From assembly GCA_027295435.1 (NCBI GenBank), contig JAPUKX010000072.1, positions 1 through 29,927 on the forward strand: a stretch of DNA of 29,927 nucleotides, read 5' to 3'. Both the position numbers and the translations under genes were made by a program. The stretch is from Planctomycetota bacterium. GTDB lineage: Bacteria > Planctomycetota > Phycisphaerae > Phycisphaerales > SM1A02. Below the pieces are notes generated by a model. The model was not told where the DNA came from. It searched no databases and saw only the letters and a list, made by a program, of their open reading frames with translations. Positions 172 through 24,794 of this stretch are shown here, one piece after another. How positions within the stretch are numbered: position 1 is the stretch's first letter; each line of letters opens with the position of its first letter.

Positions 172-755
172 CTACTCGACGTGACGCCGCGACTTCACGC
201 GGCACAACTGTACGATCGCCGCCCGGATCGGGTCGTCCAGCTCCGGCCAAGCTTCGATTATCGCTCGAAGATCGGCGTCGGCGCGCATGTGGCGCGCATG
301 CGACTCAACGGGCGCGCCAGCGCAAGTCGTTTTGTGCTCGTCTGTTAGATGCTCTTTCGGGGTCGTTATTTGCCGGATTTTGAGTCCGGCGCGTCTGCCA
401 ATTCCGCCACTCCGGCGCTTTGCAATCACAGTTTTAGCATCGCCACGGCCGATGTCAACGGCCACCTGCGGACATGCGCGGTCATGTTCGGCACCCTTAC
501 GCACAAGTGAGGCGCAAGGAATTTCAGCCGGGGTGCCGTCCGTGCCGGTCGCGTGCTGTTCGTCAGCATCGTCGGCAGCGTCTCGAGCGCTGACCGGTCC
601 TGGTCTCGCAGGGTGTTCGAGTAGAGGTCCATCGTCAGCGTGATCGTGCTGTGCCGTGCGAGGCTCTGCGCCGCCTTAGGGTGGACGCCGGCCCGTGACA
701 AGTTGCGGATGAAGGTGTGCCGCAACTCCTCGCGGAAATCTGCACACTTGCCCAT
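172..755 (-). pseudogene. Tyrosine recombinase (integrase) C-terminal fragment, 5'-truncated and frameshifted
   Basis: ORF 755-426 reads ADFREELRHTFIRNLSRAGVHPKAAQSLARHSTITLTMDLYS, matching box II (xxLRHT, LARHS, catalytic Tyr in MDLYS). The first His of HxxR is lost (FREELR) and there is an in-frame stop at 803-801. The ATGTDG tail (552-535) lies in another frame, which stays open to TAG at 174-172, implying a frameshift near 553-575. Confidence 0.8.
373..416 (-). mobile_element. att-site-like 5' half of tRNA-Leu(CAA)
   Basis: Minus strand reads GCCGGAG TG GCGGAATTGGCAGACGC G CCGGA CTCAAAA TCCGG: acceptor 5' strand, D arm and a complete anticodon arm (CAA). No variable arm, T arm or acceptor 3' strand follows. 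It lies directly downstream of the integrase fragment. Confidence 0.8.
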
Positions 756-901
756 TGCAACGGTGAATGTGTGAGGTACACTGGTAGCGCCGTAGGTGCT
801 TCAAACTCGCACGATCGAGGCAGTTGTCGGGGCCACGGATTCGGCCAGCAAGCACCTCAGCACCACCGTGCGGCCTCTTTGGTGAGGCGGAGGACCAGGA
901 T

Positions 902-910
902 TGCTATAAA
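902..910 (+). promoter_or_regulatory. Possible extended -10 element (TGcTATAAA) for the phytase-like gene
   Basis: TGn-TATAAA about 46 nt upstream of the ATG at 957. Motif match only. Confidence 0.3.
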
Positions 911-956
911 TGTCGACTGTTCAAGAATCGAGCGTTACCCGAACGGTCAGTACAAA

Positions 957-2159
957 ATGGCATGCGTGAATCATTCTCCAAGGACAATCGCCGTTGCACC
1001 GGCGGCAGTCCTGATCTCCATCTGTATCAGCCATTCCGGCGTTGGACAGACGCTGAGTGTCAACTTCCGCGGCACAATGCCGCTGGGCACCACCGCGACG
1101 GACCAGTACGGGCAGAAGTTCACCGTCACCGGACTCAGCGGGCTGACGTGGGTACAAGACACGCTCTTCGTCGCCGTCATGGATAACTCCGACAAACTGG
1201 TCTTGCTCGATGTCCAGTTGGACGTGGAGGGTACGATCAGCTTCGCCGCGATCATCGGTGGTCTCACCCTCGCCGAGTCGCGCGACTTCGAGGGCATCGC
1301 ATACACCACAGTCGACCGTGACAGCGTGTTTCTTTCTGAGGAGGACACACCCGCCATTCAGGAATACAGCCACTCGGACGGCACTTTGCTCCAAACGCTC
1401 GACACACCCTCGGTGTTCTTCAACCTGCGTCCGAATTTCGGCTTCGAATCGCTTTCGCGACATCCTGCGGGCACGGAGTTGTGGACCGCGAACGAAGAAG
1501 CGCTCACGGTCGATGGGGAGCTTTCAACGCCGGTAGACGGGACGGTTGTCCGTCTATTGCGCTATACGCGCAGCGGTGAAACCGGTATTCCTGCCGAGCA
1601 GTTTGCCCACATCACGGAACCGATGCACGGCGGAAAGATTTCCGGCGGTCGTAGCGGCCTCGTCGATCTCGCCGTGTTACCGAATAGCAAGATACTTGCC
1701 CTGGAACGCTCATTTGCGTTCAGCATCCCGGATTTCTTCGAAAGCCGGCTCTATGAATTGGATTTCAGCGATGCGACCAACGTTAGCGGCTTCGTCGACG
1801 GCCTGATCGGAGAGACCTTCACGCCCGTCGCGAAGCACCTCCTTTGGTCAGGCAGCGTTGGCAATCTCGAAGGACTCGCATTGGGTCCATCACTGACTGG
1901 CGGCAACCAATCGCTGCTCGGTATTGTCGACGACGGCGACCCGCTGAGCACGAACCAACTCGTCGCTTTCGAGCTGCTGCTCTCCTGCGACCTCGACGGC
2001 GACGGATCGGTTGGCATCCTTGATCTGCTTCTTCTCCTGAGCAACTGGGGACCGTGCCCGGATCCGCCCGCTCCTTGCACGGCCGACCTGAACGGTGACA
2101 GCACCGTCGGCATCCTCGACCTGCTGGCGCTGCTGGCCAACTGGGGGCCGTGTCCGTGA
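957..2159 (+). CDS. Secreted esterase-like-activity-of-phytase family beta-propeller protein with C-terminal dockerin-like tail
   Basis: Motifs GLSGLTW, DFEGIA, NFGFESLS, LWTANEEAL, LALERSF, NLEGLALGP. A hydrophobic N-terminus follows the ATG at 957 (the ORF track start at 717 overlaps the integrase relic). Tail 1986-2156: DLDGDGSVGILDLL...WG twice. Confidence 0.8.
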   Translation: MACVNHSPRTIAVAPAAVLISICISHSGVGQTLSVNFRGTMPLGTTATDQYGQKFTVTGLSGLTWVQDTLFVAVMDNSDKLVLLDVQLDVEGTISFAAIIGGLTLAESRDFEGIAYTTVDRDSVFLSEEDTPAIQEYSHSDGTLLQTLDTPSVFFNLRPNFGFESLSRHPAGTELWTANEEALTVDGELSTPVDGTVVRLLRYTRSGETGIPAEQFAHITEPMHGGKISGGRSGLVDLAVLPNSKILALERSFAFSIPDFFESRLYELDFSDATNVSGFVDGLIGETFTPVAKHLLWSGSVGNLEGLALGPSLTGGNQSLLGIVDDGDPLSTNQLVAFELLLSCDLDGDGSVGILDLLLLLSNWGPCPDPPAPCTADLNGDSTVGILDLLALLANWGPCP

Positions 2160-2317
2160 CCTGATCGCGATTCCAACTACAGCCCCGAACGTCTGTGACT
2201 GGAAGCAAGGTTTCAGACGATCCTTGAGGTTCAGTTCGAGATCGACTCGGCTCGCACAAAACACCTGTTCCAGCACAGCTCTCCGTAACGGATTCCGTTC
2301 AAGAAGGGACAGAACAA

Positions 2318-3019
2318 ATGAAAAGGCTCGCACCAATGTTGACGGTCACAATCGCCGGGCTTGCGCTCGCGGCGATTCCCACGACCACTCTGGCGGACCA
2401 CATTGCCGGGCATGACAATTGCGATCCGACCTTTCCGGTGCCGATTCCAGGTGAGGAGCACTTTACTGGCGGCGTCCTGTTTGTCACAGCGATCGGCCCC
2501 CTCGAGGACGACATCATCACGAACACATCCTTTGATATCACCTATGTGTCGGACGGTGCCACACCGGCGGATGAGATCCAGTTGCACGGCACCGTTCAGG
2601 TGGACAAGGGCTTCGCCGAGTTCATCGTCACCGGGGAGGATCTCGGTTTCGGCAGTGGACCCGGAACGTTCAAGGGCACGTTCTCCACCGATGCCCTCAA
2701 CGGGGTTGTGTGGCCGAGCCCCCTGTTCCCCCCTCATTCGACCGTTGATTTGCAGATTGATGCCGTCAACGGCGGCATCGGAGGATATGCCTACTTCGTC
2801 GATTCGTTCATCAACTTTGATGTCATTCCGGCGCCGCCTTGCGCACCCCCGTGCCCGGCCGACCTCGATGGCGATGGCATCGTCGGGATTCTCGACCTGC
2901 TTGCGCTGCTTGCCGCTTGGGCCACCGACCCCGGTGGACCGCCCGACTTCGACGGCGACGGCACCGTTGGCATCCTCGACCTGCTCACGCTGCTAGCCAA
3001 CTGGGGATCGTGCCCGTAA
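2318..3019 (+). CDS. Secreted protein, unrecognised beta-rich domain plus dockerin-like tail
   Basis: Signal-peptide-like start MKRLAPMLTVTIAGLALAAIPTTTLA. Tail 2852-3016: CPADLDGDGIVGILDLL...DFDGDGTVGILDLLTLLANWGSCP. Confidence 0.8.
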   Translation: MKRLAPMLTVTIAGLALAAIPTTTLADHIAGHDNCDPTFPVPIPGEEHFTGGVLFVTAIGPLEDDIITNTSFDITYVSDGATPADEIQLHGTVQVDKGFAEFIVTGEDLGFGSGPGTFKGTFSTDALNGVVWPSPLFPPHSTVDLQIDAVNGGIGGYAYFVDSFINFDVIPAPPCAPPCPADLDGDGIVGILDLLALLAAWATDPGGPPDFDGDGTVGILDLLTLLANWGSCP

Positions 3020-3027
3020 CGATGCTT

Positions 3028-3065
3028 GGACGGAATAGGACGGAATAGCGGACGAAAGGACGGGA
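3028..3065 (+). repeat. Short tandem array GGACGGAATA x2 plus two degenerate GGACG units
   Basis: GGACGGAATA GGACGGAATA GC GGACGAAA GGACGGGA, starting 8 nt after the stop at 3019. Confidence 0.75.
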
Positions 3066-3077
3066 GTCTCTTATTCT

Positions 3078-3140
3078 TGTCCGGTTCGACCTGAGTCCTG
3101 CTCTGCCGACCTCAACTGCGACGGGGAGGTCAGCGCGTAG
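3078..3140 (+). pseudogene. Orphan fragment of a dockerin-like tail (CPVRPESCSADLNCDGEVSA*)
   Basis: The intergenic translation resembles CPDPPAPCTADLNGDSTVG and CPPPPAPCSADLDGDGSVG in the neighbouring tails. It ends in TAG at 3138-3140 and has no associated gene body. Confidence 0.6.
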
Positions 3141-3254
3141 CCAGGTGTCGCGATGATGGCAGCAGGCGGCGGACACCGCCGAGAAATCCGGCCGGGTCAA
3201 TCTGGGCAAGGCTGCGCCGGCGCCTTCATCGGTAAGTTGTTTTCCATTTTCTAC

Positions 3255-3284
3255 TTGCGATACGTTGCAACCGCGTGTTATTCT
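3255..3284 (+). promoter_or_regulatory. Possible sigma70-type promoter for the FG-GAP protein
   Basis: TTGCGA-N18-TATTCT with TG at the extended -10 position, in a locally AT-rich patch about 117 nt upstream of the ATG at 3402. Confidence 0.35.
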
Positions 3285-3401
3285 AAGACATATAGTACCT
3301 GCAGACGGCAGGCCGTGGTTGGAGCCGCCGGTCACTACACGCCAACGATGGACGTGCTCTTGCTTTACCGCCATTACTTCACTCAGGTAGGAAGAAGAAA
3401 G

Positions 3402-5126
3402 ATGTTTCGTCGCCACTCCTCTATATCATCCCGCTTGGTCCTTACTGGGGCGATGACATCGCTTCTGTCTGCGGGCACCCACGCTCAGCAGTTCATCGAG
3501 GAGTCGGCCAGCCGGTTCCCCTCGCCGAACCCCACCGACTACACCAACCAGCTTACGATCGGTGATATAGACGCCGACGGCGATCTGGACCTCATCTTCG
3601 CCAACGGCGCCGGCTTCTCATCGCCGGGCGCCGCCCAACCTCAGCGCGTCTACATCAACAATGGGTCCGGCGTGTTCACCGATGAGTCGGCGGCGCGGCT
3701 CGGCTTTTCCGGCTGGTGTCGCGGCGTCGAGCTGGGCGACATCGACGACGACGGCGATCTGGACCTGATCTTCGCCCAGGATTTCAACAAGCTGCCCCAC
3801 CTTTTCGCCAACGACGGCAACGGCTTCTTCACCGACGTCACCGCTGCGCAACTACCCAATATCACCCTCAGCAGCTCCCGCGCCCAGTTCGGCGATGTTG
3901 ACAACGACGGCGATCTTGACATCTACATCACCAGCGGGTCCACGAATCGCTTCGGCTGCGGCCAGTACCGCTTGTACCTCAACGACGGCAGCGGCTTCTT
4001 CACCGACGTGACGGCTACCCACCTTCCGATCGGGGCCGTCTGCAGCAACATGGACTGCATCTTCGGTGATATCGACGGCGACTTCGACCTTGATGTCAAG
4101 ACCGCCAGCACCGGCAGCAACAGCAGCCGCCTTTACCGAAACGACGGGACCGGCGTGTTTTCCCTCGTTACCACTATTCCGGGCGATAGCTCCTGCTATT
4201 CCTATGACTTCGGCGACATGGATGGAGACGGCGATCTGGATCTCATCGGCATCAATGCGGGCACCGGCTCCACCGAACTCCTGCTGCGCAACGACGGCAC
4301 CGGAAGCTTCACCAACGTCAGCGGGCAAATCTCGCCCAACACCAGCCTGGACGACAACGACAGCAAGTTCTTCGACTACGACAATGATGGAGATCTGGAT
4401 CTCATCATCGCCCGACTCGGCTCCGGCGGCGAACGAATCTACAACAACGATGGCCATGGCAATTTCACCCAGGTCGCCGGCGTGATCCAGATCATCAGCG
4501 ACTCTTCCCTCGACCTCATGGTCGCTGATCTCACCAACGATGGAAGGCTGGACATTGTGACCGCGCAAGGCGAATCCGGGAACTTCCAGAACCGTATCTA
4601 CATCAACAACGGGCCCGCGGACACCATCCCCCCAGCAATCCAGCGCACCGAGCAGGCGCCCGACACCGCCGACACCAAAGGGCCCTACGTCATTCGCACA
4701 GTGATCTACGACAGTGTCACGTCCGATCGCGGGCCGTTCCTCGATGACGTCACGCTCAACTACGTGATTGCGATCCCAGCCGGCCTGGGCGGCGTGCAGC
4801 AGGTGCCGATGAAGTGGGCCGGCAACTCGCTGTGGCGCGGTGAAATCCCCGGCCAGCCGTCCGGCAGCCTCGTTGAGTATTATGTCACCGCGACCGACTT
4901 CGCCGGCAACTCCAAGACCGGCCCCATCCTGACGTTCACCGTCACCTGTAGTGGCACCGTCGGCGACATCGATTGCAACGGCATCGTTAACATCTTCGAT
5001 CTGTTGGCGCTGATTGCCGCATGGGGTCCGTGTCCGCCTCCGCCGGCGCCCTGCTCCGCCGATCTCGACGGTGACGGCTCCGTCGGGATCCTCGACCTGC
5101 TCACACTCCTGGCGAACTGGGGATGA
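3402..5126 (+). CDS. Secreted FG-GAP/VCBS repeat protein with Ig-like domain and dockerin-like tail
   Basis: Seven GDxDxDGDLD-type repeats, each followed by a (L/I)xxNxGxGxF-like motif in most cases. Signal-like N-terminus from ATG 3402 with a purine-rich upstream region. Ig-like segment (VPMKW...VEYYVTATD) and tail 4962-5123. Confidence 0.85.
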   Translation: MFRRHSSISSRLVLTGAMTSLLSAGTHAQQFIEESASRFPSPNPTDYTNQLTIGDIDADGDLDLIFANGAGFSSPGAAQPQRVYINNGSGVFTDESAARLGFSGWCRGVELGDIDDDGDLDLIFAQDFNKLPHLFANDGNGFFTDVTAAQLPNITLSSSRAQFGDVDNDGDLDIYITSGSTNRFGCGQYRLYLNDGSGFFTDVTATHLPIGAVCSNMDCIFGDIDGDFDLDVKTASTGSNSSRLYRNDGTGVFSLVTTIPGDSSCYSYDFGDMDGDGDLDLIGINAGTGSTELLLRNDGTGSFTNVSGQISPNTSLDDNDSKFFDYDNDGDLDLIIARLGSGGERIYNNDGHGNFTQVAGVIQIISDSSLDLMVADLTNDGRLDIVTAQGESGNFQNRIYINNGPADTIPPAIQRTEQAPDTADTKGPYVIRTVIYDSVTSDRGPFLDDVTLNYVIAIPAGLGGVQQVPMKWAGNSLWRGEIPGQPSGSLVEYYVTATDFAGNSKTGPILTFTVTCSGTVGDIDCNGIVNIFDLLALIAAWGPCPPPPAPCSADLDGDGSVGILDLLTLLANWG

Positions 5127-22056: not shown

Positions 22057-22156
22057 GGCGAGCTCGCCTACGCCTTGCGGCTCAACGTGTTTGGCGAATG
22101 CGTCATGCCTAATGCGTCGCTTCATCTGCCGGTGGCGCTTATCGGCGTTGGCGAAG

Positions 22157-22242
22157 TGCCCAGGAGAGGACTCGAACCTCCACGGGATATTAATCCCACC
22201 AGCACCTCAAGCTGGCGCGTCTGCCAATTCCGCCACCTGGGC
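22157..22242 (-). tRNA. tRNA-Leu(GAG), CCA not encoded
   Basis: GCCCAGG acceptor pairs with CCTGGGC-A. D arm GGCGGAATTGGCAGACGC, anticodon arm CCAGC-TTGAGGT-GCTGG, variable arm GGGATTAATATCCC, T arm GGAGG-TTCGAGT-CCTCT. 86 nt. Confidence 0.97.
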
Positions 22243-24595: not shown

Positions 24596-24794
24596 AAACG
24601 GCAGATGGTCCGCACAGCGGGCCCTACGACTCGGGGCGCGACGATCGCGTCAACAGAGTGCGTGAGAAAGGACCGCGACCACTCCCGACGGAATCGAGAC
24701 GGCATTATGGGGCAGCCGCGCTTGCGCACGAGCGCAATGAAACCCGGGCTGGGGACAGGGCGGCTGTGAAGGACAGCCCGGCTTGGTCAACGCG

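Follow-up and report, generated by a model that had tools for sequence, protein, structure and literature searches.

A lone 5' half of tRNA-Leu(CAA) as the probable entry junction of a phage-like element in a planctomycete contig

An isolated 5' half of a tRNA-Leu(CAA) gene near the start of contig JAPUKX010000072.1 (Planctomycetota bacterium) is probably the displaced 5' end of that gene, left at the entry junction of a phage-like element at a locus that would have been hit at least twice. The stretch of DNA analysed, hereafter the window, is 29,927 nt long and makes up the entire contig (C335) of a metagenome-assembled genome (MAG) of 2.24 Mb, 364 contigs and 86% completeness, so the DNA to the left of the window is unreadable in this assembly. 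The feature is a clear new example of a rare, already known class of tRNA-gene integration. It calls for no new mechanism, because islands with a 5' fragment have been catalogued and pTN3, an archaeal element that uses a nearly identical part of a tRNA-Leu gene, has been dissected biochemically.

The half-tRNA is exact (Table 1). It equals nt 1–44 of the intact tRNA-Leu(CAA) that is present in one copy each in three genomes of the same genus (G001, G002 and G003), and it holds the acceptor strand, the D arm and the whole anticodon stem-loop. Beyond nt 44, which completes the anticodon stem and is also the final base of the stub, identity with these genes is lost. Starting from tRNA position 1, the stub is a true end fragment of the tDNA, namely its 5' end, and not an internal piece. 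A search of the contig for the 44-mer, as proposed with the initial annotation, returned the single copy at 373–416, with a chance expectation of 0.00 (100 shuffles, up to 3 mismatches). ARAGORN called no tRNA at this position, and the Rfam tRNA model gave 24.7 bits, under its threshold of 29 and reached only by spanning 47 unrelated bases. No tRNA 3' half was found after the stub, elsewhere in the contig or anywhere in the 364-contig MAG. The absence of an intact tRNA-Leu(CAA) from the MAG is uninformative, since only 24 tRNAs were assembled in this 86%-complete genome; tRNA-Leu(TAA) is among those present. From the stub to the contig end there are 372 nt. The sole tRNA gene called in the window is an intact tRNA-Leu(GAG) at 22156–22242 on the minus strand.

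Table 1. Features around the half-tRNA, in window coordinates
Feature	Position	Strand	Basis or remark
5' end of the first island gene (ATG at 61→59), truncated at the contig end	1..61	-	ORF list
Z: linker (..LTDEHKTT..) and conserved tail module (...DLRAIIEAWPELDDPIRAAIVQL...)	175..372	-	Stop codon at 172-174
tRNA-Leu(CAA) nt 1-44	373..416	- (read 416→373)	Exact match to the intact tRNA of G001-G003
Spacer with promoter-like motif	417..467	-	Read from sequence; conserved in L127
Remnant of the integrase C-terminal tail, 'ATGTDG...LVRKGAEH'	468..557	-	Nucleotide match to G002/G003, protein match to L130
Integrase catalytic-domain remnant (RHTF...ARHSTITLTMDLY...LETLPTM, ~53 aa)	558..722	-	Pfam PF00589, identity to integrases
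78-nt leader/promoter repeat of the downstream secreted phytase-like gene	716..793	+	Copies in G001

Just upstream of the half-tRNA, and in the same orientation, lies what is left of a tyrosine integrase gene. The Pfam Phage_integrase model (PF00589) scored 18.9 bits on it against a cut-off of 27.1, with model positions 131–166 present. The remnant is 66% identical over 62 aa to a full-length 575-aa integrase in the genome G016, 63% identical to the integrase of a complete island on a metagenome contig (L130, described below) and 56% identical to an integrase on the MAG's own contig C221. Both the isolated 5' half with no 3' half and the co-oriented integrase fragment, as read by the initial annotation, thus stand. 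The fragment is a pseudogene: the N-terminal ~350 aa are gone, no complete catalytic domain is left, and the catalytic part and the C-terminal tail lie in different frames, separated by a frameshift near 555–565, after LETLPTM. The tail region is 85–88% identical in nucleotides to the region directly upstream of tRNA-Ser(GCT) in G002 and G003, which is the end of a 463-aa integrase in G002 and a fossil in G003; at the protein level it matches residues 406–458 of the L130 integrase, in another frame. True integrase homology is limited to ~722→558, because 716–793 belongs to an unrelated 78-nt leader repeat with 88–90% identical copies on contigs C24 and C14 of G001, the copy on C24 sitting upstream of another gene for a secreted (signal-peptide) protein. 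This repeat marks the deletion breakpoint that truncated the integrase, and the junction between the remnant and the phytase-like gene is spanned by contigs from other metagenomes. The phytase-like gene is transcribed divergently from the remnant, and the 78-nt repeat may serve the dockerin-tagged secretome as a common leader or promoter element.

The spacer between the remnant and the half-tRNA contains a promoter-like motif, consisting of TTGACA (458→453), a 16-nt spacer, TAAAAC (436→431) and 14 nt to tRNA +1. A strict consensus promoter scan did not flag the motif at 458→431, since its −10 hexamer lacks the T at position 6. At L127, in another genome, the DNA that precedes an intact tRNA-Leu(CAA) has kept GTGGCCGTTGACA together with an A-rich −10-like hexamer, and every case in which an integrase gene leads into a tRNA gene shows a −10-like hexamer. 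At L127, host genes are followed by a 137-aa integrase fossil, GGCCGTTGACA-N17-AACAAT and the intact tRNA. From this arrangement we infer that the spacer is a putative promoter of the tRNA, derived from an element.

The stub lies in the ancestral neighbourhood of tRNA-Leu(CAA), as indicated by the orthologue of the window gene at 3153–5126, which in G003 and G002 is found ~280 bp from the intact tRNA (match from window position 3057 onwards; 94.8% nucleotide identity in G003 and 90% in G002). In the window, 2.6 kb now intervene. They comprise the integrase remnant and two genes for secreted, dockerin-tagged proteins, the orthologues of which have other locations in G003 and G001. The flank upstream of the stub is not the native one. 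At other places, too, the MAG and G003 differ in how genes are ordered around members of these multi-copy families.

Several kinds of repeats were observed in this DNA. A dockerin-type C-terminal tag of ~170 nt occurs at 1988–2159, 2853–3019 and many other loci, in dozens of copies per genome (75–89% nucleotide identity; more than 40 matches in each same-genus genome). It yields many apparent tag-to-tag joints in metagenome contigs and is a likely driver of both gene-order shuffling and assembly breaks. A chimeric join at the dockerin-type repeats or at the 78-nt repeat was considered and rejected, since a single contig of another study spans 626–1531. A further repeat of ~100 nt at 24672–24773 resembles a small dispersed (MITE-like) repeat; it recurs on MAG contigs C228 and C94 and, in G002 and G001, directly before the tRNA-Leu(CAA) gene. 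Five other contigs of the MAG (C221, C188, C174, C79 and C22) carry integrases beside tRNA genes, 1–4 kb from contig ends, and much of the fragmentation of the MAG appears to be due to island borders.

The locus recurs in independent assemblies. A HMMER search with the open frame at 675→175 against 1.84 billion representatives returned 12 short ORFs, the best of which, P0001 (77% identity), lies on three contigs (L121, L122 and L123) from three assemblies, at the same locus as the window. Compared with L121, the window is 99.6% identical in the FG-GAP gene, 99.0% in the gene at 2318–3019, 99.0% in the phytase-like gene, 99.4% in the integrase remnant and 100% in both the spacer and the half-tRNA, and only 72.6% identical, with eight gap openings, on the element side beyond the stub (Z). 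The drop falls exactly at the last base of the half-tRNA (nt 44/45). Integration of distinct but related elements at one site would leave such a break, which is not explained by a single permuted element or by random deletion. On this comparison, the edge of the 44-mer is a true att junction that is occupied by different element variants.

Beyond the junction, L121–L123 carry a 196-aa gene, two excisionase-like HTH_17 genes and a 277-aa gene, followed by genes for a zinc-ribbon protein and an HK97-type major head protein (phrog_4523, 2e-44) and three unknown genes. The gene fragment at the very start of the window occupies the position of the 196-aa gene, which follows the tail module in L121. 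In L121 the phage-like genes give way after ~5.6 kb to a host-like gene with FG-GAP_2 repeats. All assemblies break off in this gene, and the second element may therefore be a truncated one. The sister contigs end after ~6.4 kb, short of the far end of the island. The far end of L121 showed no match to the native downstream flank of relatives, and neither the MAG nor L121–L125 contained an intact tRNA-Leu(CAA), a tRNA 3' half or a full-length integrase of the second element. Short contigs from four further studies cover 390–3300 at 99–100%, one of them spanning 626–1531 as noted above, and leave 1–372 uncovered at ≥90% likeness. The gap need not mean absence of the element, because the diverged variant of L121–L123 falls under the 90% filter. 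With excisionase-like and capsid genes beyond the junction, and with identity of 99–100% up to the end of the stub and 72.6% past it, these data bear out two proposals of the initial annotation: that the window starts at the entry into an island, and that the order of features is that of a tandem-type junction between an old remnant and a second element.

An att-like order could also arise from a single circular element captured in permuted form, through illegitimate or homologous recombination in its integrase gene, with the 44-mer as an unused attP. The sequence of integrase end, 5' half and tail is exactly that of an attP, the integrase is cut at a chromosomal junction near 716–722, and no attR is found at the far end of L121. 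We nevertheless consider this course of events improbable, because both arms of a single captured attP should diverge equally between populations, whereas the remnant, spacer and half-tRNA are 99.4–100% identical and the tail 72.6%. The locus is, moreover, the native tRNA-Leu(CAA) neighbourhood, and L127 presents an integrase fossil with an intact tRNA as an independent, stable state.

It is very unlikely that the junction is an assembly chimera, in which the chromosome was joined through conserved tRNA k-mers to the element of another strain or species. Some observations would suit such an artefact: the bin with the half-tRNA has a word depth of 200–3,500x in metagenomes against ~10x for the flanks, the window's own variant of Z is whole in no indexed run (best share 0.39), and the junction lies 373 nt from the contig end. 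L121–L123, whose names point to different assemblers, nonetheless give the same architecture with a related Z; the anticodon loop beside Z has the genus-specific ACT variant; and the reading frame from half-tRNA to tail is preserved in both variants. Even in a chimera, the source molecule would have to contain the junction between 5' half and tail.

The same architecture was found in relatives, in one case from end to end. A 32-kb metagenome contig (L129/L130, here L130) contains a complete 9,969-bp island of the 5' type in tRNA-Ser(CGA). On its entry side, host genes are followed by a putative host promoter (TTGACG-N17-AACAAT), a 44-nt 5' half of tRNA-Ser(CGA) that ends at the anticodon stem, and the tail module. 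The interior holds a D5-type primase, small genes and then a 536-aa integrase, 81% identical to that of G002, and on the exit side a short A-rich −10-like stretch, the putative element promoter, leads to an intact tRNA-Ser(CGA), 9,969 bp past the stub, and host genes. The two repeats differ at three positions in the D arm and are perfectly identical across the anticodon arm, which would place the exchange there. In G002, the 463-aa integrase is co-oriented with, and directly upstream of, an intact tRNA-Ser(GCT) inside which its ORF ends, with mobile-element genes, including an AAA/RepA-like gene, further upstream of it; a matching entry junction (attL) for tRNA-Ser(GCT) is found at L128. In G042, from another genus, the integrase ORF runs in sense into tRNA-Ser(TGA). 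G020 has attL and attR for tRNA-Gly(CCC) on two contigs without overlap, which carry two-component-system genes and an integrase pseudogene, a content that identifies a decayed island.

In G016, direct repeats of 45 nt, corresponding to tRNA-Leu(CAA) nt 1–45, flank a 37-kb ICE. It encodes ParA, a TraG/TrwB-like coupling protein and ArdC, has a GC content of 0.58–0.63 compared with 0.65–0.69 in its flanks, and contains the integrase most similar to the window remnant. A search for an empty site to compare with this ICE found none, its flanks being non-syntenic in other genera. The G016 integrase is convergent and overlaps a pseudo-tRNA with a broken acceptor stem in its 3' half. This pseudo-tRNA-Leu(CAA), at ~3164–3249 of L021 (G016:C1:420163–420248), has an intact 5' half and a divergent 3' half and is read antisense by the last ~70 codons of the 575-aa integrase (RRDSNP...FESAASANSATPA). 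An inversion that would reconcile the co-oriented window with the convergent G016 proved unneeded, as G002, G042 and L130 are genuinely co-oriented.

In L130, G016 and G020 the duplicated segment is the tRNA 5' part, and a full-length cognate tDNA, co-oriented with the 5' fragment, lies downstream of it (in G020, on two contigs). A tyrosine integrase is present in the elements of L130, G002 and G016; the window has just the dead remnant, which lies outside the stub. The supposition of the initial annotation that this element family carries the 5' half therefore finds a complete instance in L130 and further ones in G002, G042, G020, G016, L128 and L127. Across the integrase clade, ~16 of the 22 tRNA-adjacent genes are convergent with an intact tRNA, which is the classical layout, and the tail module is also found after antisense 3' halves (L052 and L057); together these cases indicate that both mirror orientations of an anticodon-arm core are in use.

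Two observations on related fossils were made alongside. First, in G003 an 86-nt fossil of an integrase 3' end lies between msrAB and an intact tRNA-Ser(GCT) (L046 3673–3758, contig C13) and shares 96% identity with the terminal part of the full integrase that occupies this place in G002, which suggests that integrase tails persist because they carry the promoter of the tRNA. A reading of the 86-nt spacer as native DNA upstream of a tRNA-Ser, which would make for a tRNA-Ser/tRNA-Leu hybrid, was rejected, since the spacer is the 3' end of the integrase ORF and survives as a fossil in G003. Second, on contig C1 of G074 the 5' part of tRNA-Gly(CCC) is duplicated with at least 13 nt of upstream flank (~2,505,300 and 758,340; L087 and L086). 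The copy leads into a tail module and is 1.75 Mb away from the intact gene; the duplication reflects either a large rearrangement or an element carrying a promoter and the 5' half.

Loss of the tRNA 3' half by plain deletion or rearrangement, with no site-specific recombination, would sit well with a neighbourhood rearranged relative to G003 and with an integrase pseudogene, and is hardly credible all the same. In the window the break coincides exactly with the end of the anticodon stem, and at L130, L128, G020 and G016 it falls at the same place or within a base; in G074 it comes a few bases earlier, inside the 3' strand of the stem. The window stub also leads into the same linker and tail module as is seen at those junctions. 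A misread classical junction, in which the tRNA 3' part belongs to the element and the stub is what the host contributes, as the 5' part, to a rebuilt tRNA, might be suggested by the convergent majority of the clade and is already refuted by the lack of any tRNA 3' part after the stub, besides being at odds with the non-native upstream flank and the duplicated 5' parts in L130, G016 and G020.

We therefore return to the reading of the stub as a tRNA 5' end displaced by a second, phage-like element, for which the following course would account. In elements of this type, the tyrosine-integrase gene is directed toward the tRNA part and is followed by a putative element-borne promoter, tRNA nt 1–44 and the small tail module. 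The 44-nt block is the att identity block, and recombination with the chromosomal tRNA would presumably take place in the 7-nt anticodon loop, flanked by the inverted repeat of the anticodon stem. One product would be the upstream flank joined to the 5' stub, the tail and the element genes. The other would consist of the integrase, the element promoter and the element 5' half joined to the host 3' half, that is, a working tRNA with a new promoter, so that an intact tRNA-Leu(CAA) would be expected at the far end of the island. An older element would have decayed to a fossil of ~350 nt (integrase C-terminal remnant, tail and promoter) that was kept before the tRNA, a state for which we infer the arrangement at L127 to be the model. 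A second element would then have entered that tRNA, giving the order of integrase remnant, 5' half and element.

The tail module raises a further point. Z shares the reading frame of the half-tRNA, this frame stays open across the half-tRNA between 675 and 175, and the frame from half-tRNA to tail is kept in the 73%-identical variant despite indels. The tail motif was detected in 21 of 121 family genomes, always after a tRNA-derived piece; the copies in G074 are all degenerate or rearranged. The tail protein matched no Pfam family, and a search for related loci with the tail gave one weak match in genomes and none in viral contigs. The frame being kept in two variants that differ by indels suggests the hypothesis that, in the free form of the element, the integrase ORF may continue across attP into the tail; among the 1.84 billion representatives, no full-length integrase with the tail in one ORF was found. 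It is possible, though we would sooner doubt it, that the integrase gene of the clade as a whole spans attP in sense, as a catalytic domain, an 'ATGTDG' tail, the promoter, tRNA nt 1–44 and a detachable tail. If so, integration would swap the C-terminus of the enzyme, the element promoter would permanently replace that of the tRNA, and integrase 3' fossils would become fixed as tRNA promoters, as in the window species, G003 and L127. The displaced host tRNA promoter would in turn read into the tail and the excisionase genes, tying control of the element to transcription of the tRNA.

Taken with the L130 island and the G016 ICE, the window offers a well-documented bacterial case of the rare mirror-image form of tRNA-gene integration, along with evidence at the population level for different element variants at a single 44-nt site. 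A 5' tRNA half that stands alone in a MAG should accordingly be taken as an island border and not as annotation noise, and island finders that expect 3' fragments beside an outward-facing integrase will misplace such elements. If the rebuilt tRNA takes its promoter from element DNA, the persistence of short integrase fossils before tRNA genes would be explained. A search of the literature found no description of this particular integrase clade.

Among known systems, the closest class is that of the islands with 5' fragments in the Islander database, which lists 3,760 islands with a 3' tDNA fragment against 159 with a 5' fragment, a minority of ~4% (Hudson, Lau & Williams 2015, PMC4383910). In that work, 5' fragments that lie upstream of the tDNA are admitted, and tandem arrays are described (PMC4383910). 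The window shares with this class a displaced fragment that is the 5' end of the tDNA, and on the present reading it would also share a tyrosine-integrase island in a tRNA gene, a position of the fragment upstream of the regenerated tDNA, an attP centred on the anticodon, the occurrence of tandem arrays and integrase ORFs some of which may extend across attP. It differs in that only one junction is on the window contig and in that an earlier element's fossil forms the upstream flank.

A second comparison is with pTN3 of Thermococcus nautili, whose minimal att, tRNA-Leu nt 2–44, is contained in the integrase ORF, with 41 bp shared by attP and attB, and in which the rebuilt tRNA is cut off from its original promoter (Cossu et al. 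2017, PMC5495485). A review of archaeal tyrosine recombinases states that rebuilt bacterial tRNAs retain their original promoter, with very few exceptions (PMC8371274). The target, tRNA-Leu, is the same and the tRNA segment is nearly so (nt 2–44 in pTN3, nt 1–44 here). pTN3, however, is archaeal and of the SSV type, with the att in the body of the integrase, which is therefore divided into Int(N) and Int(C) on integration. In elements of the window type, the att comes after the catalytic tyrosine, only a C-terminal tail would be detachable, and a separate promoter-like element precedes the tRNA part. In L130, G002 and G042 the tRNA part follows the catalytic Tyr motif by ~50–90 codons, which leaves the catalytic domain intact, unlike in the 'suicidal' SSV and pTN3 integrases, and the window feature is for this reason not a member of the SSV/pTN3 type.

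The myxophage Mx8 targets the 3' end of tRNA-Asp genes, and its integration changes the C-terminus of the integrase protein. Here, too, attP would lie in the 3' part of the integrase ORF, in so far as that ORF is continuous, and integration would alter the C-terminus; the tRNA part is the 5' one here, unlike in Mx8. Mx8, with its intP/attP, and SSV are both noted for integrases that extend across attP (PMC4383910).

In the classical tRNA islands and phages of the P4, L5 and HP1 type, the common core is the tRNA 3' half (PMC10865867). The elements described here resemble them in the Pfam family of the integrase, in a core placed on the symmetric anticodon stem-loop and in the restoration of the tRNA. 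They are their mirror image in that the 5' half is duplicated and not the 3' half, identity in the window covering nt 1–44 with no 3' part following, and the rebuilt tRNA therefore needs a promoter borne by the element.
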